The position numbers were made by a program, and so were the translations under genes. The notes beneath the pieces were generated by a model that did no database searches, was not told the DNA's origin, and worked only from the letters and a program-made list of their open reading frames with translations. Positions 4,165 to 64,000 of a stretch of DNA of 64,000 nucleotides are shown here, one piece after another (position 1 is the stretch's first letter; each line of letters starts with the position of its first letter). Source of the stretch: a bacterium (GTDB lineage Archaea > Nanobdellota > Nanobdellia > Pacearchaeales > GW2011-AR1); NCBI GenBank assembly GCA_036833455.1, contig DAITPU010000002.1:16812-80811 (forward strand). Reading direction: 5' to 3'.

Positions 4165-4395
4165 CTATGAATATTTTTTAAAACCTATTTCTGTAGCAAC
4201 TTCTCTAAAACAATGCCTACAAAGATTGATCCCATAAGATTTTATGTGGGCACCGAATCTTCCGCACCTTTCACACTTTCTCTTTGTGATCCCTATTTTT
4301 CTATCTTTTGGTTTGCAATGTTTCAAGAACTTTGCTTTTATAGCTGGTTTCGCATTTAATTGTTTAAAATAATTTTTCCAATCGCTTGCTGGCAT
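4165..4395 (-). CDS. rps14: Ribosomal protein uS14 (Zn-ribbon type)
   Basis: [25 protein letters not shown] zinc-binding S14 signature; between S8 and L5. Confidence 0.8.
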
Positions 4396-7867: not shown

Positions 7868-8460
7868 TATTTCTTCTCCTTAGTTTTTTTAGTTTCTTTG
7901 GACTTTGCTACTAGCCTTACATTTGTTCTTTTTTTCTGAGTTCTTCCCCCTCTTCCTAAAGTAGTTGTTCCTTTATTTGCAATTGCGAGATAAATGAAAG
8001 GATCTTCTACTCCATGTTGGTTTGCATTTCCTTCTAATCCTTTTAACATACTAGTAAAAGGTTTTACTGCCCTAACTGGATATCTCCCTGACATTATTTT
8101 TCCTTTTCTGTGGGGAATTTCTCCTTTCATTGGTACTGCTAATTTTAATTTTGAAACTTTTTCCAAGTAAGATAAGGCATCTTCGATTCTTCTTCCCTGA
8201 ATAGCTCTACAAATTGCAATTGCTTTTTTTGTTGATACAGGAATATTAGTTGCATTTAATTCAACTTGATCTTTTATTACTTTCTTAGTTGGAATTTTCT
8301 TTTCTTCCTTTTTTGATTCTGTTTTTTCTTCAACTTTTTTTTCTTTTGGATCTATATTTTTTTGAACTTTCTCTTCAACAATTGGTTTTTGTGTATCTAC
8401 ATTTATAGATCTTTTTTTCTCTTGTTTTCCCATTGGTTTTTCAGTATTTGTTCCTGCCAT
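7867..8460 (-). CDS. rpl22: Ribosomal protein uL22 with ~45-aa K/E-rich N-terminal extension
   Basis: STKKAIAICRAIQGRRIEDALSYLEKV L22 core; gene order. Confidence 0.85.
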   Translation of the reverse strand: MAGTNTEKPMGKQEKKRSINVDTQKPIVEEKVQKNIDPKEKKVEEKTESKKEEKKIPTKKVIKDQVELNATNIPVSTKKAIAICRAIQGRRIEDALSYLEKVSKLKLAVPMKGEIPHRKGKIMSGRYPVRAVKPFTSMLKGLEGNANQHGVEDPFIYLAIANKGTTTLGRGGRTQKKRTNVRLVAKSKETKKTKEKK

Positions 8461-8462
8461 TT

Positions 8463-8873
8463 TTATCCTTTTTTAGATGATTTCTTTTTAGTTGATCCTG
8501 CCTTTTTATCTTTACTTACATGTTTTGCTTTTTGTCTTGTCAAAGAAAATTCTCCTAATTTGTGACCTAGCATTTCAAAACTAATATCTATTGGAATAAA
8601 TTCTCTTCCGTTATATACTTGAATCTTTGTTCCAACTAATTTGGGAATTATAACTAAATCCCTCTTATGGGTTTTAATCGCCTTTTTCCCTTCAGATAAT
8701 TTTTTTTCTACTCTTTTTAAAAAATTTTCATGTTCTTGAAAATTCCTAAGAACAGTTCTCTTTTGTCTTGTCTTTAGTAGTTTTGCAAATTCTCGAACTT
8801 CCAATACTTTTAATTCTTCAAGAGTTTTTCCTCTAAAAGTTGATTCTTTTTTTCTTACTTCCATTTCTGTCAT
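8463..8873 (-). CDS. rps19: Ribosomal protein uS19
   Basis: GHKLGEFSLTR and VYNGREFIPIDI S19 motifs; gene order. Confidence 0.85.
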   Translation of the reverse strand: MTEMEVRKKESTFRGKTLEELKVLEVREFAKLLKTRQKRTVLRNFQEHENFLKRVEKKLSEGKKAIKTHKRDLVIIPKLVGTKIQVYNGREFIPIDISFEMLGHKLGEFSLTRQKAKHVSKDKKAGSTKKKSSKKG

Positions 8874-8874
8874 T

Positions 8875-9576
8875 TTATTTTCTCTTCCCCGTTCTTCTTG
8901 GCCTTATTAATCCAACTCTTGCACCTGCAGGAGCATTTCTTTTAGCAATCTTTGGTTTAGGATTCTTTCCTCTACCTGAACCAAAAGGATGATCTATTGC
9001 ATTCATCTTAACTGCTGAAGTTCTTGGCCATAATTTACTTTTTGATTTTTTTATATGGTATTTTTTTCCTGCCTTCAAAACTGGTTTATCTAATCTTTGT
9101 GTTCCAGCAACAACTCCTACAATTGCCCGGCAATTAAGAGCAAATTCTTTTTCTTTTTTAGAAGGCATTGAGATGAAAACTTTATTTCCTACTAACCTTG
9201 TCACAGTTCCATAATTTCCTCCTGTCTTAATAAACTTTCCTCCGTCATTTGGTTTTGATTCCAAACAATAAACTTTAGTTTTTACAGGAATATCTTTAAT
9301 TTCCAAGATATCTCCATCACTTACTTGCTCTTTCTTTTCAAAATTTATTTTTTGGCCTTCATACATTTTGTCAAAAGCGGGTATGTAAAATGTTCCTTTG
9401 TTTGAATTTATCTTTGCTATTGGGGCTGAATGCGCCCTAGAATTCATTATTTTCAAGACAACTCCTTCTCCTTCTAATCCTCTTAAAAATTGAATTTTAT
9501 ATCGAAAGGCTTTCCTGCTAACTCTATAAGTGGAACTTCCGTGTCCTCTAGCTTGTTGAATTATTCTTTTTCCCAT
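8875..9576 (-). CDS. rpl2: Ribosomal protein uL2
   Basis: Canonical L2 (GGRKNPKP..., MNAIDHPFGSG-like HPFGGG motif). Confidence 0.9.
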   Translation of the reverse strand: MGKRIIQQARGHGSSTYRVSRKAFRYKIQFLRGLEGEGVVLKIMNSRAHSAPIAKINSNKGTFYIPAFDKMYEGQKINFEKKEQVSDGDILEIKDIPVKTKVYCLESKPNDGGKFIKTGGNYGTVTRLVGNKVFISMPSKKEKEFALNCRAIVGVVAGTQRLDKPVLKAGKKYHIKKSKSKLWPRTSAVKMNAIDHPFGSGRGKNPKPKIAKRNAPAGARVGLIRPRRTGKRK

Positions 9577-50131: not shown

Positions 50132-50246
50132 TAAAATGAAATGCGCCGGAATGTTCGCACTCCTGTCGTCAAAACATTTGTAATGGAGGATGTCAGAAGA
50201 TACCCAGATTCGAAGTTATCATCCCGCCTAAAATGAAATGCGCCGG
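50132..50246. repeat. 18-bp perfect direct repeat (taaaatgaaatgcgccgg) at 50132-50149 and 50229-50246 with degenerate T-arm-like copy between
   Basis: Second copy contains last 8 nt of tRNA-Gly plus 10 nt trailer; 79-nt spacer carries GGAGUGCGAACAUUCCGGCGCA resembling the tRNA T-arm/acceptor. Confidence 0.6.
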
Positions 50247-50310
50247 CCGGGATTCGAACCCGGGTCAACTGGGTGGAAGCCAATTATACTAACCACTATA
50301 CTACCGACGC
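50239..50310 (-). tRNA. tRNA-Gly (anticodon TCC)
   Basis: Cloverleaf: acceptor GCGUCGG/CCGGCGC (one G-U), anticodon stem AUUGG/CCAGU loop CUUCCAC, T-arm CCGGG-UUCGAAU-CCCGG. Confidence 0.75.
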
Positions 50311-50395
50311 CTATACTTATTTTTTGATGGCTTATTTAATAAACCTTACTATTTTGGTTAATAAGATTTATTAATAAGTTTTATTTGTTTTATAT

Positions 50396-50869
50396 ATGGA
50401 TAAAAAGAAAACCTTTCTTTTTCTTGAATTAATTATTTTTTTCTCAATGGGAATTATTACTTTTTTAGAAATTATTAAATTTGAATTATTTGAAAAGACA
50501 TTTAGTTTTTTACAACCATATATCGGTTGGTTTATAGGACTTAGTTTTGGTTTTGTTTTTTTAGGTTTTCTTAATACCCTAACAAGGAAATTTAAAATAG
50601 GCCTTATTGAAAAAAGAAAAGAATATTTTTCTATATTTCTTATAAATTTATGTCTTTCTTTTACTCTCGTTACATTCATAAAGGTTATTGCAATTTCTTT
50701 TTTTAGTAAATTTTTTATTTATTTTCATGTTCTTTTTTTGCAATGGATTTTAATTTTATATGTGATGTTTAAATTAAAAAATAATTACGAAATTTCTCAA
50801 AATTATTTAATAATAAATGAGTTGATTGTTCTTTTTTATACGGTTATAATTATGATTTTTGTGCTTTAA
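50396..50869 (+). CDS. Hypothetical membrane protein (overlaps an alternative minus-strand ORF)
   Basis: 157 aa with 4 hydrophobic helices; very AT-rich, weak support. Confidence 0.3.
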   Translation: MDKKKTFLFLELIIFFSMGIITFLEIIKFELFEKTFSFLQPYIGWFIGLSFGFVFLGFLNTLTRKFKIGLIEKRKEYFSIFLINLCLSFTLVTFIKVIAISFFSKFFIYFHVLFLQWILILYVMFKLKNNYEISQNYLIINELIVLFYTVIIMIFVL

Positions 50870-50870
50870 T

Positions 50871-50945
50871 GCCCGGGACAGGATTTGAACCTGCGACTTC
50901 CACCTTAGGAGGGTGGCACTCTAATCCAGGCTGAGTTACCCGAGC
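50871..50945 (-). tRNA. tRNA-Arg (anticodon CCT)
   Basis: Acceptor GCUCGGG/CCCGGGC, anticodon stem CCACC/GGUGG loop CUCCUAA, T-arm GCAGG-UUCAAAU-CCUGU. Confidence 0.8.
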
Positions 50946-50958
50946 AAGTTTGTTTTAT

Positions 50959-51040
50959 GCAAGGGACAGGATTCGAACCTGCGTAGGCATACACCACTGG
51001 AGCCTTAATCCAGCCCATTTGACCACTCTGGCACCCCTGC
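50959..51040 (-). tRNA. tRNA-Leu type II; anticodon loop UUAAGGC reads as AAG (unusual)
   Basis: Acceptor GCAGGGG/CCCUUGC, D-loop GAGUGGUCAAA, anticodon stem CUGGA/UCCAG, variable arm GGUGUAUGCC, T-arm GCAGG-UUCGAAU-CCUGU. Confidence 0.7.
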
Positions 51041-51104
51041 ATATTAACATTATAGAAAAAGAGCAGTATAAAAAACTTTATAAATGAAACATTACCTTTA
51101 ATTT

Positions 51105-51221
51105 TGAAGACGGCCATAGTAGGTTGGAAACACCTGTTCCCTTTCCGAACACAGAAGTTAAGCTTCCTACGTTGTTGGCAAGTAGTGTCCGACAAGACGC
51201 GAAACCTTCAAGTCGTCTTTC
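51105..51221 (+). rRNA. rrf: 5S rRNA
   Basis: GACGGCCAUAG...CACCUGUUCCCUUUCCGAACACAGAAGUUAAGC...GUAGUGU 5S consensus; helix I between 51106-51113 and 51213-51219. Confidence 0.8.
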
Positions 51222-51987: not shown

Positions 51988-52185
51988 TTAAGACTTTTTG
52001 AATTTAGAAACAAGTTCAATCGTGTCAGCTTGGCCTAAAAAAACACTTCTGCAACAAAATCTCTCCAATCCTAAATCATCCAAAACTGATTTTTTAGATT
52101 CTCCTTCAGAAGTTCTCTTTTTGAATTCTTCCCAAAGGTGACCAATAGGTTTTCCACAAGAAAAACATCTAACTGGAATTATCAT
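51988..52185 (-). CDS. rpoN: DNA-directed RNA polymerase subunit N (Rpb10)
   Basis: MIIPVRCFSCGKPIG...LGLERFCCRSVFL canonical RpoN. Confidence 0.85.
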   Translation of the reverse strand: MIIPVRCFSCGKPIGHLWEEFKKRTSEGESKKSVLDDLGLERFCCRSVFLGQADTIELVSKFKKS

Positions 52186-55087: not shown

Positions 55088-55798
55088 ATGGAAATTATAA
55101 AAAAAACAGATGAAAAATTAGTTTTTTCTGCAAATGTGGGAATTGAATTGGCTAATGCAATTAGAAGAAGTGTTTCGGAAATCTCTACAATTGCTATTGA
55201 TGAATTAGAAATTTCAAAAAATGATTCTGCTTTATACGATGAAACTATTGCTCATAGGATTGGCTTGATTCCTCTCAAAATGGATAAGAGCTACAAAGAA
55301 GGAGAAAGTTTTAATTTAAAATTAAGCTCCAATAAAAAAGGATTTGTTTATTCTGGGGATTTAAAGGGAGATGTTGAAGTTGTATTCGATAAAATACCCA
55401 TAACTCTTCTTGAAGAAAATCAAGAAATAAAATTAAAGTGTAAAACTAAAATTGGAACAGGAAAAGAACACTCTAAATTCAGTCCTGGTTTTATAAGTTA
55501 TAGAGAATCTTTAGAATTAAGCATGGATAAAATCTTTGAAGAAGAATTGCGAAGAGTTTTTCCAGATATTGAAATTAAGAAAAAAGGTGAAAAGATTTTG
55601 GTTTATGATAAAGGAGAGAGATCTATTGTAGATTTTTGTGAGGGAATTAGCACTAAAAATAAAAAAGAATTTTCAGCTAAAGAAAATGGAGAAATGATTT
55701 TTGTTATTGAATCTTTTGGTCAAATGAAAGCAGAAGAAATTTTTAAAAAATCTGTTGAAGTTTTAGAAAAAAATTTGAAGAAAATAAAATTAAAATAA
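55088..55798 (+). CDS. rpoD: DNA-directed RNA polymerase subunit D (Rpb3-like), no Cys-rich insert
   Basis: Follows S13-S4-S11 as in archaea; Rpb3 fold sequence (ELANAIRRS..., HRIGLIPLK). Confidence 0.7.
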   Translation: MEIIKKTDEKLVFSANVGIELANAIRRSVSEISTIAIDELEISKNDSALYDETIAHRIGLIPLKMDKSYKEGESFNLKLSSNKKGFVYSGDLKGDVEVVFDKIPITLLEENQEIKLKCKTKIGTGKEHSKFSPGFISYRESLELSMDKIFEEELRRVFPDIEIKKKGEKILVYDKGERSIVDFCEGISTKNKKEFSAKENGEMIFVIESFGQMKAEEIFKKSVEVLEKNLKKIKLK

Positions 55799-55901
55799 TT
55801 CTTTTTTTTTTTCTTTTAAGAGTATGGTTGTTTTTTTGCAGTTCTTTTTGAAAAAAAATATCTTCAAATCTTTTTAGGGATAGGAAGATATTTTCGTAAT
55901 T

Positions 55902-56075
55902 TTTACTCCTTTCTTCTTTTTTGGAAAAGAGATTTGATCCCAATTCCTATGATTAGAAAAAAAGACACGATTCCTCCTACTGCTAGAAAGAATCCTTCCC
56001 ATTTTACTACCTTGATCACCCAATAAAGGAAAATCAAAATGGCAATGAGAATTAGGAAAAAGGTTAGTGTGCTCA
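55902..56075 (-). CDS. Small (57 aa) membrane protein, not in ORF track
   Basis: rc translation MSTLTFFLILIAILIFLYWVIKVVKWEGFFLAVGGIVSFFLIIGIGIKSLFQKRRKE. Confidence 0.25.
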
Positions 56076-56090
56076 TTGTTTTTGTTTTTT

Positions 56091-56477
56091 TTAGTTAAAG
56101 GTTTTCTTTCCCCAGAATTGTCCGAGAACTATTCCAAGAATAAGTGCTAAAAAGGAAACTAGGATGCTTCTGAAAATGATTCCTTCTTTTAGTCCCAATA
56201 ATATGAAAACTACCATACAGATTGCGGCCATGCTTATCCAAATATACCAAAAAAAGGCTATCAGGAATCCTTCCGTTCCAAGAGGATAATCTCTTTTTAG
56301 GATGAAGGCAATTATTCCTGCAAGAGATATTCCTGTAAGAATGTATGGCCAGACATTAGGATCCTTTGAGAGATCTTCTGTTCCCCCAAAAACATTTAAG
56401 GCAAAAAGTATGCCAAAAATAAATAATAAAGCAAGTTCTTTTTTCATAGTTGTGATTTTTGTTTTTTTGTTTGACAT
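56091..56477 (-). CDS. Small membrane protein, first gene downstream of repeat element copy A
   Basis: 128 aa, 3-4 TM; higher-GC codon usage than left part of window. Confidence 0.45.
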   Translation of the reverse strand: MSNKKTKITTMKKELALLFIFGILFALNVFGGTEDLSKDPNVWPYILTGISLAGIIAFILKRDYPLGTEGFLIAFFWYIWISMAAICMVVFILLGLKEGIIFRSILVSFLALILGIVLGQFWGKKTFN

Positions 56478-56487
56478 TAAAAAATAA

Positions 56488-56548
56488 ATAGCACTCGCAT
56501 CATAGCAGTGCTCTTACCAACTTCGCTTGTCGTTCTCAATTAAGAGTT
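56488..56548. repeat. Structured intergenic repeat element, copy A (~60 nt)
   Basis: ATAGCACTCGCATCATAGCAGTGCTCTTACCAACTTCGCTTGTCGTTCTCAATTAAGAGTT; near-identical to copies at 59405, 61482, 62924. Confidence 0.75.
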
Positions 56549-56558
56549 TGGAAATTCT

Positions 56559-58040
56559 TTATTCTATCTGGATAAACATTGTTTGTATTGATCCAGATGT
56601 AGCCGTTATAGGAGTTCCAGCCGGAACAAAGATGACTGCCACATAGCTTCCCGGAAGGGCAACATAATTCCCTCCGTACAGATTTGCTGCAGCATACATC
56701 TCTTGGGCCTTTGTAGTCAGGGCCGGAACACCGCCTAAGGGCAGTCCATTCCATTGGGGTACATCAAAAAGCCATAGGGCTTGTTGCAAATCCCACCAGG
56801 AGTACGACCCAAAATAATCCAGGTGATTATAAAGCCAATTTATTTTCTTCCACCTTTCTTCCCCCCGAGCGAACAGCGGCAACTTGTCTTGATACAGCGA
56901 TGAGTACACATCCATGTTATACGCCACTCCTATGTAAATTAAAGTGGAGTGATCGGCGCAATTGGAAGGATATACTCCATTTTGCAAAATATATCCCGTC
57001 GGTATATTGCTCAATGTTGCATCCACATACCCCCCCATTGTGGATGGTTGAGCAGTAATGGTGTATGTGCACGTGGAGGGCAAATTCATATACTCCGGGA
57101 TTATTACGTCCGGCGGAGTGGCAGGATCATAGCATCCTCCTAAAACAAAATCAACTACTCCGTCGTTTCCTTGAGGAATGTTGGATACATCGTTAAAGGA
57201 AAATTCTTTGAATAGGACATATCCGAACGTTGTTCCTGTCTTCACATAGATGAAGAGTTTAAAGATAAATTCCTCATTTTCATCTAGATAATCTCCATAA
57301 TTCACTGCTAGCTTTTCTCCCTGGACGGAATTCAGAAAAGTGTTCTGCAATACTCCGTTTCTCCACACCTCGACTTTAAATATCGCCGGTACATCGATAT
57401 ACGGTCCGGGGGAAAGACTCCAATTTGCTTGCTGAGAATATAAAGACCCCACGTATTCCGACTTATTTCTGATACAGAAATTTCCGAAAAACCACTGCTC
57501 GCGGATAACCACCTGGTTTAACTGGAAGTACACAAACCCGAAATTTGCGTGGGTTGCAGGATCATAACAAGCAACATCCATTTTGAGTTCATTTTTTTTG
57601 TCTGTGGATACTTGAAAAGTTTTTTCCAAAGGTGTCGTGACGTAGCCGGCAAACGCGCTTCCAATATGAGGTGTAGCAAATATTAAAACATCATCACCCA
57701 AATTATTTGGTGTGTTGTTGTTGTTATACACAAGGAATTCACTTATGAGGTGTGTTCCGGCAGGTAATTTTATTGAGGATGTGTATTTGTTCCCCCCTAC
57801 ATTAAAAATCGGAATCTCCTGAAAATTCCCCTGGTTTATTCTCAACCGGACATAATCCGCTCTCAAACCAGAGCAGATGACAGTATCGATCTTTGTGATT
57901 GGGCCAGATTTCTGAGAAAGGTTATTAGTTCTGTTCTCCACTTCAATTGAAACTTCAAAAAGTTCTGAAAGTGGAGTATCTTCCTTTTTGCATCCAAAAA
58001 GCAAAAGGAATGGAACAAGCAAAAAAAGTTTTGTTTTCAT
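56559..58040 (-). CDS. Lipoprotein with bacterial-type lipobox (LLLFGC), 493 aa, unknown function
   Basis: MKTKLFLLVPFLLLFGCKKED signal/lipobox; GC-richer codon usage; conserved start-proximal motif AAAAAACTTTTAACAC-ATG. Confidence 0.55.
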   Translation of the reverse strand: MKTKLFLLVPFLLLFGCKKEDTPLSELFEVSIEVENRTNNLSQKSGPITKIDTVICSGLRADYVRLRINQGNFQEIPIFNVGGNKYTSSIKLPAGTHLISEFLVYNNNNTPNNLGDDVLIFATPHIGSAFAGYVTTPLEKTFQVSTDKKNELKMDVACYDPATHANFGFVYFQLNQVVIREQWFFGNFCIRNKSEYVGSLYSQQANWSLSPGPYIDVPAIFKVEVWRNGVLQNTFLNSVQGEKLAVNYGDYLDENEEFIFKLFIYVKTGTTFGYVLFKEFSFNDVSNIPQGNDGVVDFVLGGCYDPATPPDVIIPEYMNLPSTCTYTITAQPSTMGGYVDATLSNIPTGYILQNGVYPSNCADHSTLIYIGVAYNMDVYSSLYQDKLPLFARGEERWKKINWLYNHLDYFGSYSWWDLQQALWLFDVPQWNGLPLGGVPALTTKAQEMYAAANLYGGNYVALPGSYVAVIFVPAGTPITATSGSIQTMFIQIE

Positions 58041-58182
58041 GTGTTAAAAGTTTTTTGTGAAAAGGATTAAAACTCTTCTGCAACATAGACTTAACTTACT
58101 AAATTCCGTCACAGTGGTTCCCTATTTTTTTATAGCGATTGGATTCAACGCTCACAATTTCTTCTCAATTAAGAGTAAAGAG

Positions 58183-58212
58183 GTTGGCGACGAGATTCGA
58201 ACTCGTACCTTT
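58183..58212 (-). other. tRNA 3'-half-like fragment (T-arm + acceptor 3' strand), no 5' half found
   Basis: rc GGUACGAG-UUCGAAU-CUCGU-CGCCAACC; upstream sequence does not fold into D/anticodon arms. Confidence 0.35.
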
Positions 58213-58304
58213 TCTTCTCTCCGTGCGTGGGATCTCTGCCGTAAAAAGAAAAACGCTAGGGAGGAAGAGAGAAGAAAACTTCTACTTAAAATACGCCAAC
58301 CATT

Positions 58305-58634
58305 TCAATCACATAAATTCACCCTGTTCTTTTCATCCTCTTCTTTCATTCTGGATATCCAGCCCGAAAGAGGAGAAAGTTCTGAATCTAAAACCATCTT
58401 ATGATCCGCACGATAAAGAATAATTCTGCCACATTTGCAGAATTTTATCCTGTCGTCGTACCAATCTGTTCTGGAATTTGCCTTTCTTCCAGACCGAACT
58501 AGGACTTTTAGTCCGTCCGGGTCGGAAACTTCATAGTATGTTTTTGATCCTTGGTTCTCAAAAACAAACCTTATTTTCCGAATTGAATACTTCATTGGAT
58601 CTCCAATCCTAACACACTCTTTTAAAATATTCAT
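58305..58634 (-). CDS. Hypothetical protein (island)
   Basis: 109-aa ORF, overlaps next gene start/stop (operon-like). Confidence 0.4.
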   Translation of the reverse strand: MNILKECVRIGDPMKYSIRKIRFVFENQGSKTYYEVSDPDGLKVLVRSGRKANSRTDWYDDRIKFCKCGRIILYRADHKMVLDSELSPLSGWISRMKEEDEKNRVNLCD

Positions 58635-58891
58635 TCTGCCCTCCTTTCCAGTTTGAAGTTAAAGATGTGTTGGCCTTCTTTCCGGCGTGAAGCCTTTTTG
58701 TCAAACTCCAGGGAGAAAGAGTCGGCCGGAAATATCTTGGAGAGTTCTTTCACAAGAGAGCTCTTTGAGCTCACTCTCTTAATGAAATTTCCTCTTTCTT
58801 CAAAAGGAACTATGCTCAAAGAGGACGACTCGGGGTGGAGCTGAAAAGATCCCTCTCTTTTTAGGAGGACGAATTCATTTTTCTTTCCCAT
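58631..58891 (-). CDS. Hypothetical protein (island)
   Basis: 86-aa ORF in tight tandem array. Confidence 0.4.
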   Translation of the reverse strand: MGKKNEFVLLKREGSFQLHPESSSLSIVPFEERGNFIKRVSSKSSLVKELSKIFPADSFSLEFDKKASRRKEGQHIFNFKLERRAE

Positions 58892-58902
58892 GATTTTAAT
58901 TT

Positions 58903-59214
58903 TTAGTTGATTGTAATAGCTGATTTGTTTAAAGGGGTTAAGAAATAAATTACTTTTCCGTCTTCCGACGAAAAGGAAGAAACTCTTCGCAATTTTTCCT
59001 CTAAAAGAAAAATTATTTCTTCTATTGCCTCGTTTGGATTTCCGTTCCTTTTAAGAGTGGTTTTTCCAAAGATAGAAGTTAAACTTTTCTTTATTTCCTC
59101 TTTAGAGAGAAAAATTCCTTGAGAAAGGATTGATATGAGATAGGCCATTTCTTCTTGATAAGGAGAAGATGGATGCCTTTCCTGTAAAAAAATTCTAAAA
59201 TTTTGCTTTTCCAT
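58903..59214 (-). CDS. Hypothetical protein (island)
   Basis: 103-aa ORF. Confidence 0.4.
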   Translation of the reverse strand: MEKQNFRIFLQERHPSSPYQEEMAYLISILSQGIFLSKEEIKKSLTSIFGKTTLKRNGNPNEAIEEIIFLLEEKLRRVSSFSSEDGKVIYFLTPLNKSAITIN

Positions 59215-59226
59215 AATTAATTTCGA

Positions 59227-59367
59227 TTAATCTTCCAAACAGCATTTTTTTCGGGCCCAGGCATTCCTTTTTTGAAGAGAAAGTATTGCTCTCCTATATT
59301 GAGCTGCCTCTTTTTTTTCGAGACATTTTTGGCGAAGGGCCTCAATTTTTTTTTGAATTTTTTTCAT
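59227..59367 (-). CDS. Small basic protein (46 aa) directly downstream of repeat copy B
   Basis: MKKIQKKIEALRQKCLEKKEAAQYRRAILSLQKRNAWARKKCCLED; start preceded by AAAAAACTTTTAACAC. Confidence 0.35.
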   Translation of the reverse strand: MKKIQKKIEALRQKCLEKKEAAQYRRAILSLQKRNAWARKKCCLED

Positions 59368-59404
59368 GTGTTAAAAGTTTTTTTGTTAAACATAAAATTA
59401 AAAA

Positions 59405-59464
59405 ATAGCACTCGCTCACAGCAGTGCTCTTACCAACTTCGCTTGTCGTTCTCAATTAAGAGTT
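59405..59464. repeat. Structured intergenic repeat element, copy B
   Basis: ATAGCACTCGCTCACAGCAGTGCTCTTACCAACTTCGCTTGTCGTTCTCAATTAAGAGTT; overlaps stop of 59452..59703. Confidence 0.75.
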
Positions 59465-59703
59465 GGCTGCATCTTAGATTGAATTATTATAAGATTCCTC
59501 TTGAACCTCTTGCGATTAAAGGTCCAGAGAAAACTTTCAAACAAGAAGTGCATTGCTGCAAATCCATAATGGGCGATTCCGGTTAGGAAAATTACGAGAA
59601 AGAAAGTTAAAAAATTAGCTCTCTTCTCTTTCAAACCTTTCCAGGTTCTTCTCCAGAAAATCTTTTCTTTCTGAAGGACAATTTTGAGCAGGCTTGTCTT
59701 CAT
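59452..59703 (-). CDS. Small membrane protein (island)
   Basis: 83 aa, one TM. Confidence 0.4.
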   Translation of the reverse strand: MKTSLLKIVLQKEKIFWRRTWKGLKEKRANFLTFFLVIFLTGIAHYGFAAMHFLFESFLWTFNRKRFKRNLIIIQSKMQPTLN

Positions 59704-60290
59704 GATTTTTTCCTCCTCATGTTCTGGACAATAGCAAAATGAACTGAATCTTTTGGAAGATGCAGATTATATTTCTTATTGATCTTTGGCATTCCTAATG
59801 TTGAACACCAAATGTTTGGAGCTTTCACTGCCTCTTCCTTTGTTATTTCATAATACGGAAGGGGTGAATGAATCTCGGTCACAATAGTTTTTCTGTCTAC
59901 CTCTGAAGAGGAGTCCAGCTTCAAGGAATTACTATCTCTTTCAAAGAAATGGATATTTATCTCTTCATAAGAGAAAGAAAGAGTGCCTCCTTTTGTTCGA
60001 ATTAGAATATTGCTATCCTCTCTCAATAGAGCAAAGTGAGGTGTGACACGGACCATACTATCATTTACCTGAACTGAATCCCCCTCGACAGGCGATAAAA
60101 TTCTTGTTCTCATAATAACTGTCTCTCGCTCTGCGGATTTTGCTCCAACTGCATTTAAGACTGCCATCGGAACGAATGCTATGCCTGCAGCAAGAAGAAT
60201 GATAGTAAACTTCTTCTGGTATGCCCTTTTTCCGAACACCATCGCAATCACGATGATTGCAATTAAGGTGGAAACTAGATATGTTGCCAT
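59700..60290 (-). CDS. Membrane-anchored hypothetical protein (island)
   Basis: 196 aa, two N-terminal TMs. Confidence 0.45.
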   Translation of the reverse strand: MATYLVSTLIAIIVIAMVFGKRAYQKKFTIILLAAGIAFVPMAVLNAVGAKSAERETVIMRTRILSPVEGDSVQVNDSMVRVTPHFALLREDSNILIRTKGGTLSFSYEEINIHFFERDSNSLKLDSSSEVDRKTIVTEIHSPLPYYEITKEEAVKAPNIWCSTLGMPKINKKYNLHLPKDSVHFAIVQNMRRKKS

Positions 60291-60302
60291 TTTTCTTCCT
60301 CC

Positions 60303-61442
60303 TTATTTATCTTGTTTCCACTCTATTCCGGGGCAGTAATCTGTGTAAGCACTTCCAAAATATTCTCCGAATATTCCTAGAAATCCCAGGAAACCCTTCC
60401 AAAAGATTTCGCATCCATTTGCGATAAGACCCACGCAAAGAATATTCCAGAAGAAACTTACGGCCAAAATCTTAACAAAGAACCCATAGATTAACCATTC
60501 CCATAATAGTTTGACCAGAAGATAATAAAAGGGAGTTATAAATATTCCCTTAAGCAATTTCCCATACCAGGATTCTGGGTTAAAAGAATAATATATGCCT
60601 CTGAAAAGTAGGAAAATTAGATAACCCGCGGTTAAAAACGCCGCAATAAGGCCAAATACTTCTCCAAAAACGATTAAGAAACGAATTATTTCTTGACCAT
60701 CCCAGATATAAACTATCCAGGTAATTCCTCTTGTGAGAAAAGTTAACACAAAATAGAGCCCAACAAAAAGGATTGTTGAAACGATGAATCCCGTCACTCT
60801 TTTGGTCCATTTAATGAGCTTGGCCTGTCGACGAATCTTATCTGCTGCAGAATTGCGTGCAGCGGATATCTTTTCTCCAAATTCTTCGAAGATAGGTCTA
60901 AATTGTTTCCTGGGCTTGGGAGGATTTTTCTTCGATATTTCTTCGAGCCTCTTGTTTCTTTTTTCAATCAGTTCGTTTCGTAGAATTATCCAATGTTTTC
61001 CTTTTTTCTCTGCCTCTTTTTTAAGCCAAGAATACATTTTTGAATCCTGCTCGAAAGTTATCCTTCCTCCAAAAATCTCTTTTTGACAAGGTCCTCCTTT
61101 TTCACACCAAGCATCAAATTCTCTCCAAAAGAATTCTCTTTCTTCCCTCATCTGCCTGTCCCATTTTTCATACATTGGTTCCATGAGGTATTTTTCCTGA
61201 AGGAGGAGGAGGTAATTGAAAAATTTTGCGAATAACTTCAGAATGTTCCAAAGAAGAAGAAGAATTAGTTTCACCGGCCCCCATGTAAAGAAAAGGAGTC
61301 CAGATAGGATAGTTAACCAGAAGTAGGGACAAAGATTCCGCATTGTCTCTGGATCTGGAGCCAGATTTCCCAGAATAAACTGGTTCATTCTGTAATGCCA
61401 AGACTTTGTGCTTAGCGTGATTAAATTTATGTGTTCTTCCAT
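60303..61442 (-). CDS. Polytopic membrane protein (island), 379 aa
   Basis: multiple TMs with W/F-rich helices; preceded by repeat copy C. Confidence 0.45.
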   Translation of the reverse strand: MEEHINLITLSTKSWHYRMNQFILGNLAPDPETMRNLCPYFWLTILSGLLFFTWGPVKLILLLLWNILKLFAKFFNYLLLLQEKYLMEPMYEKWDRQMREEREFFWREFDAWCEKGGPCQKEIFGGRITFEQDSKMYSWLKKEAEKKGKHWIILRNELIEKRNKRLEEISKKNPPKPRKQFRPIFEEFGEKISAARNSAADKIRRQAKLIKWTKRVTGFIVSTILFVGLYFVLTFLTRGITWIVYIWDGQEIIRFLIVFGEVFGLIAAFLTAGYLIFLLFRGIYYSFNPESWYGKLLKGIFITPFYYLLVKLLWEWLIYGFFVKILAVSFFWNILCVGLIANGCEIFWKGFLGFLGIFGEYFGSAYTDYCPGIEWKQDK

Positions 61443-61481
61443 GATTGAAAAAGTTTTTTTGTTGATACTAAGTTAATAAAA

Positions 61482-61541
61482 ATAGCACTCGCTCACAGCA
61501 GTGCTCTTACCAACTTCGCTTGTCGTTCTCAATTAAGAGTT
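61482..61541. repeat. Structured intergenic repeat element, copy C
   Basis: ATAGCACTCGCTCACAGCAGTGCTCTTACCAACTTCGCTTGTCGTTCTCAATTAAGAGTT, identical to copy B; overlaps stop of 61533..62006. Confidence 0.75.
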
Positions 61542-62006
61542 GGGGATTTTTTTCTTTCTTTTGAACTCAAAAAGAAGTCCAAGAGAAATTCCTAATATTG
61601 TGAAAAAAGGGATAATCCATTTCCACAACGCAAACGATGGATCAAAATCTGGAAGTTCGTGGAGGGCAGATGTATTTTGAAATGCCGGAATTAGGAATCC
61701 CGGAATAAATCCAAGGAAAAAAAAACTTCCGCTCCAAGAGAGATAGCCCCCTTCTACTTTTACTCTTTTGAAAAAGAGGATTAGAAAGAAGTGGAATATT
61801 ATTCCTATCCCACAACCAACTAAAAGGTAAGGTAGAAATCTAAAATTGGGAACTTCTTCCCAAGGGAAGAGAAGTTTCCAGTTTCCTAATTCTATTCCTG
61901 CTCTTCGAATTAAAAGGTTGAAGGCTAGTGCGCTCCAAAGGAGGCACATGATGGCGATTAAAGAACGAAACTTTGTTTCGTTCAAAAATAGAATCATCCT
62001 TTTCAT
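61533..62006 (-). CDS. Membrane protein (island)
   Basis: 157 aa, 4 TM. Confidence 0.45.
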   Translation of the reverse strand: MKRMILFLNETKFRSLIAIMCLLWSALAFNLLIRRAGIELGNWKLLFPWEEVPNFRFLPYLLVGCGIGIIFHFFLILFFKRVKVEGGYLSWSGSFFFLGFIPGFLIPAFQNTSALHELPDFDPSFALWKWIIPFFTILGISLGLLFEFKRKKKIPNS

Positions 62007-62443
62007 TTTTCCTCCTTTCTTATTTGGATTACTTCCAACATAACTCCTAGAATAGAAAAACAGATTCCTCCGAACCCCAGGAGATAGGAAGTTCCTACTT
62101 TTGCGTTATGGAGAAACTTTGAAAAATGGGTTAAGGAATCTTCAGGATTCACTTCCCATCTGTATTCAAGGTTCATTAAAAGGAACAGAAGATAAATCCC
62201 CAAGATAAATAGGAGATACTTGTATCCTTTTAAGAATGTATACCCCATTCCCTTTCTATTGTAAGGGAGAATCTCCCGCTTGAAGAGGAGCCAGAAGAGC
62301 ACAGTAAAAATGTTCAGGGAAAGGGCAAATCCCCCTGTGCTTAGAAGTCCACGTTCCATTCTTAGGAAAAAAATCATTCCTACGAAAGAAATAATTACTC
62401 CTAGAAGGAGAAAAATTTCGGTTAAATTCTTTTTTGTTTTCAT
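62003..62443 (-). CDS. Membrane protein (island)
   Basis: 146 aa, 4 TM; start preceded by AAAAAACTTTTAACAC. Confidence 0.45.
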   Translation of the reverse strand: MKTKKNLTEIFLLLGVIISFVGMIFFLRMERGLLSTGGFALSLNIFTVLFWLLFKREILPYNRKGMGYTFLKGYKYLLFILGIYLLFLLMNLEYRWEVNPEDSLTHFSKFLHNAKVGTSYLLGFGGICFSILGVMLEVIQIRKEEK

Positions 62444-62465
62444 GTGTTAAAAGTTTTTTTGTTTG

Positions 62466-62882
62466 CTAAATTTTTTCTTTTAAGAAAAGTCTCCTTATGG
62501 GAGGGATCTTTTCAAGGATCCAACTTCCTCCCCAGATAAGGATAAAGACAATTAGTAAGTCCTTCAAAAAGGTAGGGTCCTTGAACATGTAATATGTCCA
62601 GACCATCATTAGAATGGTCATTATTAATAGTGTCAAGAAAAAAATATTTTTTACTTTTCTGTAATTTTCTTTCTCTCTTGACATTGCCCGGACTAGTATT
62701 CCCATTCCAAATAAAAAGATCACAAGTGGGGCTCCTGAAATGCGATAGATATCTCTTTTGGAAAATCCCTCTTGTTCTGCTGCAGAGTCAAATTCCGAAA
62801 ACTTTATTTGCTTTCTGCTCATAGCTTCCGTCGAGCAAGAAAACAAAATTAATGAAATTAAAAAGACAAATAATTTTTTCAT
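62466..62882 (-). CDS. Lipoprotein/membrane protein with lipobox LFSC
   Basis: MKKLFVFLISLILFSCSTEA then 2 TM; start preceded by conserved motif and truncated repeat copy D. Confidence 0.5.
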   Translation of the reverse strand: MKKLFVFLISLILFSCSTEAMSRKQIKFSEFDSAAEQEGFSKRDIYRISGAPLVIFLFGMGILVRAMSREKENYRKVKNIFFLTLLIMTILMMVWTYYMFKDPTFLKDLLIVFILIWGGSWILEKIPPIRRLFLKEKI

Positions 62883-62923
62883 GTGTTAAAAGTTTTTTTT
62901 GTTTAACATAAAATTAAAATAAA

Positions 62924-62959
62924 TAACACTCGCTCACAGCAGTGCTCTTACCAACTTCT
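62924..62959. repeat. Structured intergenic repeat element, copy D (truncated)
   Basis: ATAACACTCGCTCACAGCAGTGCTCTTACCAACTTC then abuts stop of 62968..63747. Confidence 0.65.
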
Positions 62960-62967
62960 TAAAAAAA

Positions 62968-63747
62968 TTATTTCAATTTGAGGATTTGACCCACCCTCAA
63001 TTTGTTCGGATTATCAAGACTATTCAAAACCTGGATTTCCCTCCAGGAAAGCCCGTATTTTTGGGCTATACTTCCCAGAGTTTCTCCTGATTTTACGATG
63101 TGGGAAGTGGGAATCTCTGAGGGGGCAGAGGGGACAGGTGAATCCGACGAAGAAGGCTGTACCTTCCGCTTTGAATAGAGACGGGTATTAGCTATCCAAA
63201 CTCCATCTTGTCCCTCTTTTGATTGGACAAATAAGTTGAGAGTGTAGTTATCATACACCTCATCGAACTTTCCCTGTTCAAAGAGATAAACAAAAATTCC
63301 TCTTTGGAACACAAGGAAATTTCTTTTTCCCAATTTTATTGGGAAGGTGTGATTTCCCGCACTTTCACGGTAATCTCTGTTCTTTAGAGTTTTGATCTCT
63401 TTCTCTTTGTCGAACAGAGGGGAAACTTTTGTGTTTCTTGCGATCAATACTCGTTCGTTTGTTTTTTCAAAAAAGAACATTCTATCCTCGTCCCAAATCA
63501 TCTTCCCTTTTTTCTTCCCTTCTTTGAGAGTAAGGGTAAAACGTTTATTGATCCCCCAGATTTGATCTTCTTCAAACTGGAGAATAAAATCTCCCTGTCC
63601 GTCAAGGTGGATAACATCATATTCCCCCAAAGGAGCTTCTTTAGAAATTCCTCTTTCGATCTTGGAAGTGTTTTCCAACTTCTGGGGGGAGGAGCAACTG
63701 GCGATCATAAAAAAGATCGCGATGGAACAAATTTGTTGTGTTTTCAT
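62968..63747 (-). CDS. Lipoprotein with C-terminal LysM domain
   Basis: MKTQQICSIAIFFMIASCSS lipobox; C-terminal VKSGETLGSIAQKYGLSWREIQVLNSL...LRVGQILKL LysM signature. Confidence 0.6.
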   Translation of the reverse strand: MKTQQICSIAIFFMIASCSSPQKLENTSKIERGISKEAPLGEYDVIHLDGQGDFILQFEEDQIWGINKRFTLTLKEGKKKGKMIWDEDRMFFFEKTNERVLIARNTKVSPLFDKEKEIKTLKNRDYRESAGNHTFPIKLGKRNFLVFQRGIFVYLFEQGKFDEVYDNYTLNLFVQSKEGQDGVWIANTRLYSKRKVQPSSSDSPVPSAPSEIPTSHIVKSGETLGSIAQKYGLSWREIQVLNSLDNPNKLRVGQILKLK

Positions 63748-64000
63748 GGTTGAAAAGTGATTTGGGTTTTGTGAAAAAATTTATTGAATTTCAAGGTTAT
63801 TTCAAGGTATTTCACTTGAAAAATATATTATCGTCTAGCTTATGCTTGACTGTTATTTCTTTCCTAAAAGGTATTTCGCTTCGGAATTTTCATTTCGAAG
63901 GTTTTTCACTTAATCTCTTTGTCGAGTTTAAGTTTTTTCAGTTATTTTCTTTTTCGAAATCAACTTTTTTAGATATTTCAAATACGAATCTTGTTAAAGA

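Follow-up and report, generated by a model that had tools for sequence, protein, structure and literature searches.

A compositionally deviant island beside archaeal rpoD, candidate cargo of a variable surface-protein slot in DPANN archaea

Bacterial genes in the genomes of DPANN archaea are often written off as binning errors. Pacearchaeota and Woesearchaeota with murein-binding or murein-degrading proteins have nevertheless been described and proposed to be episymbionts of bacteria (PMC8204110), and lipobox proteins, together with the lipidation enzyme AliA, have been reported in DPANN (PMC12462473). Two further systems serve as points of comparison. Signal peptides that end in [A/S]-Q follow a "Q-rule" specific to Bacteroidetes (PMC5837995), and in T4-type phages promoter-early stem-loop (PeSL) cassettes, which are composite terminator/promoter elements, bring about the shuffling of accessory genes as modules (Arbiol et al. 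2010, PMC2839356; Comeau et al. 2014, PMC4122927). Here we describe an island of ~7.9 kb in a 64,000-nucleotide stretch of Pacearchaeales DNA (assembly GCA_036833455.1, contig DAITPU010000002.1, positions 16,812 to 80,811; hereafter the window). We read this island as cargo that was imported recently and now occupies a hypervariable slot for surface proteins, one shared by a Pacearchaeota/Nanoarchaeota-type DPANN clade, and we give this reading a probability of about 0.6.

The island spans ~55.85-63.8 kb and lies nearly wholly within the window; its surroundings were read on the 161-kb parent contig, ERZ724101 NODE_25, of which the window is bases 56,809-120,808. Its guanine-plus-cytosine (GC) content is 0.38 against 0.29 in the host DNA, with 1-kb values of 0.34-0.41 over 56-64 kb against 0.24-0.33 over 1-56 kb. 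On a fine scale the rise sets in at ~55.85-55.9 kb, directly past the rpoD stop codon (55,798), and its end can be placed, on the parent contig, at ~63.8 kb (position 4200 of locus L004), just upstream of the start of a LysM gene. Third codon positions carry the shift (GC3 of 0.39 in the 14 island open reading frames, or ORFs, and 0.18 in 12 host genes), and in tetranucleotide usage the three island segments lie at a distance of 36-37 from the host mean, all 28 host segments at 11-24. The island thus deviates in GC, GC3 and tetranucleotide usage, as genomic islands do in base and codon composition. A preliminary description, made from the letters of the window, had noted a break near ~55.9 kb with GC-richer third positions and had proposed sliding-window GC and tetranucleotide profiles as a check; the profiles are not uniform, and the break is real. 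Its account of a minus-strand array of membrane proteins also holds, as the 14 ORFs are all on the minus strand and tightly packed, and 8 have transmembrane segments.

Both flanks of the island are archaeal. To the left, as previously described, lie L21e, Rpb4/RpoF, DUF655, S13, S4, S11 and RpoD, with rpoN upstream on the other strand (51988-52185, minus). The last host gene on this side, rpoD (RNA polymerase subunit D/Rpb3; 55088..55798, plus; Pfam RNA_pol_A_bac and RNA_pol_L; GC3 0.16), is convergent with the island. To the right, an AT-rich spacer of host composition (63748..64000) forms the boundary in the GC profile and runs to the stop codon of a native DUF87 ATPase gene just past the window (~64069). 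Reading on from the LysM gene across the window edge, this 656-aa ATPase of HerA/FtsK type is followed by a gene for a 148-aa coiled-coil protein (together L004 1554-3972 on the parent contig, window-equivalent ~64069-66487) and then by L18e-L13-S9 in the expected orientation, which restart 2.8 kb beyond the edge. The island had been said to truncate the archaeal ribosomal cluster. Because L18e-L13-S9 restart after the ATPase and coiled-coil genes, the cluster is not truncated; the apparent truncation was an artefact of the window edge, and the three ribosomal genes whose presence elsewhere on the contig had been raised as a question are found there.

The ATPase and coiled-coil genes have host composition (GC ~0.28, GC3 0.17-0.20). 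Hundreds of ATPase homologs at ~60% identity are known, and those with names belong to Nanoarchaeota, Pacearchaeota, Diapherotrites or an "archaeon," which confirms the DPANN host and marks the ATPase as native. We considered the ATPase as a member of the island and rejected this on the grounds of its host composition and its hundreds of DPANN homologs. The same layout recurs in all four related DPANN genomes examined (L092/L093, L094, L143 and L144): S9-L13-L18e are followed on the opposite strand by the coiled-coil protein, sometimes accompanied by one or two extra genes, then by the ATPase and by an array of small genes in the same direction. The coiled-coil gene adjoins the ATPase in 5/5 genomes, the ATPase unit lies between rpoD and rpl18e in at least three of the four relatives, and the arrays of L092/L093 and L144 end at RpoD-S11-S4-S13, like that of the window. 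Since relatives have the same layout, the interruption between S13-S4-S11-RpoD and L18e-L13-S9 is ancestral to the clade. In L094, a LAGLIDADG homing-endonuclease gene (8137-8892) sits between rpl18e and the coiled-coil gene, a further sign that the neighborhood takes insertions.

What changes from genome to genome is the array. Among the window genome, L092 and L094, homology is confined to the coiled-coil protein and the ATPase (~60% identity), and the arrays share nothing; the relatives bear different arrays at the slot, and the island is absent there (by direct comparison for L092 and L094, by gene tables otherwise). Their arrays comprise 9-16 or more small genes, of which few or none match Pfam, and an AT-rich spacer of 300-700 bp separates the ATPase from the array. 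GC3 values for flank, core and array are 0.17/0.19/0.39 in the window genome and 0.14/0.16/0.15, 0.19/0.19/0.28, 0.25/0.26/0.31 and 0.33/0.34/0.39 in the four relatives. By this measure the window array is by far the least ameliorated, which points to recent arrival.

Signal-peptide, lipobox and transmembrane proteins predominate in the arrays. Signal peptides of the signal peptidase I type end in [A/S]-Q in 7/8 cases in the relatives' arrays versus 0/4 host secreted proteins in the window, although these are few cases, with cleavage sites assigned by visual inspection. The ends are NAQ, IAQ, LAQ, FSQ and KAQ, alongside LFGC or FASC lipoboxes (L092 16387-20290; L143 12664-19564; L144 12297-15622), and Q-rule ends are present even where codon usage is wholly host-like (L092, GC3 0.15). 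Because of these signal peptides and the published proposals on bacterial-wall binding (PMC8204110), the comparison suggests that the slot collects surface proteins of Bacteroidota type. The array of L143 (15344-21938) also holds an ABC transporter pair, a von Willebrand factor A (VWA) lipoprotein and a protein with a Pfam OmpA match, and that of L144 (12969-14969) a 666-aa CBM96 lipoprotein. The OmpA domain is a peptidoglycan binder. Searches of the PDB with the sequences of three array proteins from relatives gave no match.

Within the island, the clearest affinity to another lineage is that of p493 (56559..58040, minus), a lipoprotein with the N-terminal motif LLLFGC. It has 149 homologs. 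In a scan of one genome per prokaryotic species, its family was found at 75 loci, 72 of them in Bacteroidota and none in archaea, with a best identity of 52%; the hosts are mostly Bacteroidales but also include Flavobacteriales, Lentimicrobiaceae, Prolixibacteraceae and Carboxylicivirga. An AlphaFold2 model (pLDDT 84) predicts a chain of Ig-like beta-sandwiches whose fold most resembles Bacteroides BT_0210 and the pilins and adhesins of Gram-positive bacteria, so that p493 may be described as adhesin-like. A ratio of nonsynonymous to synonymous substitutions (dN/dS) of 0.13 against the 83% homolog indicates purifying selection. The closest relatives (83% and 69%) lie on metagenomic contigs, mostly AT-rich, in unrelated surroundings, where the neighbors are RtcB, glycosyltransferases, a type I-F-like CRISPR-Cas locus or a P-type ATPase. 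Homologs differ in GC3 as well (0.45 in L006, 0.20 in L008/L009). These differing contexts and GC3 values imply that the gene moves alone and has resided for unequal times in AT-rich genomes. Homologs also occur on a phage-like contig (55%; L010, ERZ4201038 NODE_737) and on a 316-kb viral contig (31%; L142), which between them carry a T4 gp13-like gene (L010), PRPP synthase, AAA and HSP20 genes, and this Bacteroidota lipoprotein family appears to be occasionally phage-borne.

Two further observations concern the p493 gene. Compared with L006 1898-3373, its nucleotide identity is a mosaic, from 58% at the 5' end to 94-96% in some 120-nt stretches, which suggests intragenic recombination. In L095 (6879-11814), P0004, the 69% homolog, lies directly upstream of a Cas3 / Cas7fv-like / Cas6 locus that resembles a type I-F variant.

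The second lipoprotein, p259 (62968..63747, minus; N-terminal motif MIASC; GC3 0.43), joins an orphan N-terminal region to a C-terminal LysM glycan-binding domain. The LysM match (PF01476, residues 216-258) reaches 55.6 bits over a gathering cut-off of 20.9, with E = 4.9e-15, as the preliminary description had led us to expect. Matches to PHROG endolysin and LysM families are confined to the C terminus, and scans of IMG/VR and JGI metagenomes with p259 alone returned nothing or the LysM domain alone. The three lipobox-like N termini noted earlier are all present: LLLFGC in p493, ILFSC in p138 (62466-62882) and MIASC in p259. Against the pattern [LVI][ASTVI][GAS]C, MIASC is canonical, and LFGC and LFSC fit when position -2 is relaxed. 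The p493 family alignment (A1) has an invariant C17, and CKKED follows the lipobox in p493. These motifs had been taken as classic bacterial markers, which they are not: DPANN have lipobox proteins and AliA (PMC12462473), and the ameliorated arrays of the relatives contain lipobox proteins too, so a lipobox alone is not diagnostic of bacteria.

A different source is indicated for three adjacent minus-strand genes of membrane-module type, p379 (60303-61442), p196 (59700-60290) and p83 (59452-59703). The p379 family comprises 187 cluster representatives at <=34% identity, and 32/33 of its members match phrog_944, a phage membrane "moron" family. In IMG/VR it is present on 42 contigs, 20-425 kb in length and in many cases 100-425 kb. 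Homologs of p379, p196 and p83 occur at 41, 26 and 34 IMG/VR loci, respectively, as a conserved and co-directional trio, with neighbors that include a NUMOD3 endonuclease, an Rv2179c-like exoribonuclease, HAD_SAK_2 and an R2K ATP-grasp protein. The trio is a module of large phages. A tblastn search of GenBank phages with p379 and a single-protein scan of IMG/VR gave no match. One homolog, on the 425,361-bp contig L103 (IMGVR_UViG_3300035208_004923), is labeled both "Candidatus Pacearchaeota archaeon" and "Clostridia bacterium" in NCBI, and L103 is probably a huge phage mis-binned into metagenome-assembled genomes (MAGs). We therefore rejected p379 as a Pacearchaeota family, which one MAG label had suggested, because the same sequence also carries the Clostridia label and its contig is in IMG/VR with phage-type neighbors. 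Overall, judging by these affinities, the cargo is of mixed origin, with a Bacteroidota gene (p493), a large-phage trio and orphan ORFs.

The genes are punctuated by an intergenic unit of ~110 nt that occurs in four copies, all of them in the island. Each runs from a hairpin CCAACT...AGTTGG through a second hairpin AGCACT...AGTGCT with a T-run and an AT-rich box to an A-rich leader, AACAAAAAAACTTTTAACAC, that leads into an ATG. The hairpin energy alone is not exceptional (z = -1.1); the units are terminator-like, and their promoter part is predicted. At the core of each unit is a 66-nt repeat on the minus strand. R2 (61478..61543) and R3 (59401..59466) are 100% identical, R1 (62919..62984) is a diverged copy, 64% identical to the reference, and R4 occupies 56485-56550 within a complete unit of two hairpins, T-run, AT-rich box and leader at 56445..56556. 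The repeats divide the island into five blocks: LysM; p138-p146-p157; p379-p196-p83; p46-p103-p86-p109-(tRNA-like element)-p493; and p128-p57. R2 and R3, the identical pair, enclose precisely the phage-type trio. The last codons and the stop codon of both p83 (R3, 59452-59466) and p157 (R2, 61533-61543) come from the repeat's 5' end, CCAACTCTTAATTGA, in two different frames; the cassette end doubles as a portable stop signal.

The tRNA-like element (58185..58301, minus; ~118 nt; fold z = -3.2) has an 8-bp acceptor stem (GGTTGGCG/CGCCAACC) and a perfect T-arm, ACGAG-TTCGAAT-CTCGT, and is without a canonical D or anticodon arm. Neither ARAGORN, at relaxed settings too, nor Rfam calls it, and a sensitive Rfam scan of the island gave chance-level matches only. 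The T-arm is not conserved in L006/L007 upstream of the 83% p493 homolog. A partial fifth copy of the repeat 5' end follows the element at 58162-58176.

The remaining ORFs, all on the minus strand, are small. The leftmost cassette (55903..56477), whose distal end has no repeat, encodes the membrane proteins p57 (55903-56076; 2 predicted transmembrane segments; GC3 0.38) and p128 (56091-56477; 4 segments; GC3 0.30), which have no protein-family match. Four are small soluble orphans, p109 (58305-58634), p86 (58631-58891), p103 (58903-59214) and p46 (59227-59367), the last beginning at a conserved start-codon motif; they have no significant match in Pfam, PHROGs or NCBIfam. PADLOC gave none for p109, p86 and p103, and no defense-system match among the island proteins tested. 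The predicted multi-pass membrane proteins p157 (61533-62006), p146 (62003-62443) and p138, of which the last two begin at the conserved start motif, likewise have no significant family match in Pfam, PHROGs or NCBIfam. Farther left, the window holds an ordinary archaeal RNA gene cluster (50239-51221), with tRNA-Gly, tRNA-Arg and tRNA-Leu on the minus strand and a 5S rRNA gene on the plus strand (51106-51221).

Other explanations of the island must be weighed against these observations. The preliminary description had offered an assembly chimera, and an assembly or binning error that joined bacterial or phage DNA to an archaeal contig would produce an abrupt compositional step; the exact 66-nt repeats do break k = 31 assemblies. 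These breaks, however, match the repeats and not the compositional boundaries. Logan contigs of three runs end at R1, k = 31 contigs break at R4, and contig ends at ~56,533, ~59,430 and ~62,929 fall exactly at 66-nt repeats, because the repeat exceeds the assembler k of 31; this is repeat collapse and not a join between organisms. We had also considered strain variation for the coincident ends at ~56,533 and ~62,929 and rejected it, as both fall exactly on these repeats. The left junction, from RpoD into island DNA, lies within conservative Logan contigs of SRR26719225 and SRR6007447, and the right junction, with the DUF87 ATPase beside the LysM gene, within those of SRR26719225, SRR6007447 and SRR6007444. 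The right-hand contig of SRR26719225 even represents another strain: over 10.8 kb it shows 90 differences (99.2% identity), every one of them in host DNA, and it keeps the junction. With archaeal genes on both flanks in the order seen in relatives, we reject a chimera as extremely improbable. The idea that these are native DPANN genes whose higher GC reflects amino-acid content or expression level gains something from the lipobox and membrane-protein arrays that relatives carry at native composition, yet it fares no better than very unlikely: the shift is in GC3 and not in GC1/GC2 alone, the tetranucleotide signature deviates too, the host membrane proteins SecD and SecF have a GC3 of 0.15-0.16, and p493 has relatives in Bacteroidota and none in archaeal representative genomes. 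It is also conceivable that the array forms a working operon with the DUF87 ATPase and supplies membrane and pilus parts of a Ced-, type IV secretion system (T4SS)- or FtsK-like translocation machine, with an incidental GC difference. Arrays always lie downstream of the ATPase in the same direction, their products are mainly membrane or secreted proteins, and the ATPase is weakly similar to CedD, HerA, mad8, Zot and terminase families (in PADLOC, weakly to HerA and mad8). But a conserved machine would keep its partners, and array proteins of the three compared genomes show no detectable homology where the ATPases are ~60% identical; the NCBIfam CedD model scores 64 bits against a cut-off of 600, which does not place the protein among Ced/T4SS-like ATPases; the AT-rich spacer sets array and ATPase apart; and GC3 values of 0.39 and 0.19 speak of separate evolutionary histories. 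We regard this operon as improbable.

A viral origin deserves longer consideration. The island could be the remnant or fragment of a virus genome, for example an accessory segment, like a hyperplastic region, of a large phage or archaeal virus captured in the chromosome. The wide occurrence of the p379-p196-p83 trio beside phage-type genes on IMG/VR contigs, the p493 homologs on a contig with T4 gp13 and on a viral contig, the PeSL-like composite terminator/promoter repeats at the cassettes (PMC4122927), the tRNA-like element and the tight, co-directional packing would all fit. The island, however, has none of the genes for capsid, portal, terminase, tail, replication or integrase; its PHROGs matches are phrog_944 and the LysM domain only, with no virion or conjugation hallmark gene. 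The p493 family is overwhelmingly cellular (72 Bacteroidota genomes versus 1-2 viral contigs), the repeat and start motif have no exact match in IMG/VR, and the relatives' slot holds unrelated arrays, so we hold this explanation to be possible but doubtful. Nor does the island look like a classical integrated element, since no integrase domain was found in its ORFs (Pfam, PHROGs, NCBIfam) and no terminal direct repeats (att) bracket 55.9-63.8 kb. Relatives also have the XerA-like recombinase found 3 kb beyond S9, which is therefore a host gene. Of the bacterial-origin acquired or integrated island that had first been suggested, horizontal acquisition stands on composition and a bacterial source stands for p493 (72/75), whereas the integrated bacterial block does not: there is no syntenic bacterial block, one cassette is of phage type, and integrase and att sites are missing.

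Several points also weigh against our own reading of the island as imported cargo of a conserved slot. The demonstrated affinity to Bacteroidota is limited to one gene, p493, and no other island gene was found near p493 homologs among the 82 loci examined, so no single donor segment is identified. Considering the contigs on which its closest relatives lie, the immediate donor of p493 could be another DPANN or candidate phyla radiation (CPR)-like organism, or a virus. No homologs of ten island ORFs, or of the LysM lipoprotein's N-terminal region, were detected in family-profile scans or in Pfam, PHROGs and NCBIfam. Neither the repeat core nor the start motif has an exact copy in IMG/VR. Finally, the Q-rule argument draws on few, manually read cleavage sites.

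If the island is the present cargo of the slot, its DNA would have come recently, perhaps through an intermediate, from the gene pool of Bacteroidota and phages. By analogy with PeSL, the terminator/promoter-like repeats may supply expression signals and may also act as patches of homology through which cassettes enter, are exchanged or are lost by looping out, as in T4-type phages. The encoded proteins, namely the adhesin-like lipoprotein with its Ig fold, the lipoprotein with the glycan-binding LysM domain and the small membrane proteins, would remodel the archaeal envelope. The imported lipoproteins are predicted to be anchored through an archaeal AliA-type pathway and could plausibly mediate contact with peptidoglycan-bearing neighbors. 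Envelope remodeling is thus the likely function from the domain content, possibly with adhesion to peptidoglycan-bearing cells.

It is tempting to go further and see the slot as a dedicated capture-and-display locus, at which a Pacearchaeota-like DPANN clade repeatedly installs surface genes from Bacteroidota and phages (Ig-fold lipoproteins, LysM- or OmpA-type peptidoglycan binders and Q-rule secreted proteins), with turnover helped by portable cassette ends. We offer this only tentatively and think it rather unlikely. If it were true, these archaea would be physically associated with Bacteroidota in a cross-domain episymbiosis, and the slot would record the host lineage. In any case, archaeal ribosomal and RNA polymerase genes enclose the transfer described here, whether between domains or from virus to archaeon, and independent assemblies reproduce it. 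It exposes a slot, conserved in position but variable in content within a DPANN clade, where secreted and lipid-anchored proteins are concentrated, several with hallmarks of Bacteroidota and some with peptidoglycan-binding domains. The slot is a testable handle on the partners of Pacearchaeota/Woesearchaeota-type DPANN and their possible attachment to bacteria. The analogy with PeSL is a further hint that regulatory cassette ends of phage style can work in the chromosome of an archaeon.

How, then, does the locus compare with known systems? Like the PeSL cassettes of T4-type phages, it has short composite terminator-plus-promoter-like repeats between co-directional accessory ORFs of unassigned function, and near-identical copies flank single cassettes, one of which here (p379-p196-p83) is a large-phage module. 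Unlike them, the repeats lie in an archaeal chromosome with archaeal genes on its flanks and not in a T4-like phage, their sequence is unrelated to T4 early promoters, and an exact search of IMG/VR found no source phage; the likeness is a functional analogy and not a claim of membership. Integron arrays share the unidirectional short cassettes, each ending in an imperfect-palindrome repeat. In contrast to integrons, the island has no IntI integrase or attI, its cassettes hold one to five genes, and its repeats, which carry a T-run and a start-proximal leader, read ...CCAACT...AAGTTGGTAAG... without the RYYYAAC/GTTRRRY core pair. With the surface lipoproteins and Q-rule proteins of Bacteroidota (PMC5837995), the locus has in common the lipobox and family membership of p493 and the A/S-Q signal-peptide ends of the relatives' arrays. 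The island genes are nonetheless in an archaeon, which lacks Lgt/Lsp, an outer membrane and glutaminyl cyclase, and anchoring here would need archaeal AliA-type lipidation (PMC12462473).

A further comparison is with the acquired islands and bacterial genes described in DPANN (Castelle et al. 2021, PMC8204110; Dombrowski et al. 2020, PMC7414124). Here, too, a deviant block with partly bacterial cargo lies in a conserved neighborhood, and, as among the bacterial genes of Pacearchaeota and Woesearchaeota, that cargo consists of extracellular and membrane proteins, including one with a peptidoglycan-binding domain. The island differs from known acquired islands in having no integrase, tRNA target or direct-repeat att sites, and its cargo is a mosaic of Bacteroidota, phage and orphan genes instead of a single donor segment. 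It differs, too, in its setting: a slot that is variable across the whole clade and anchored by a conserved ATPase.

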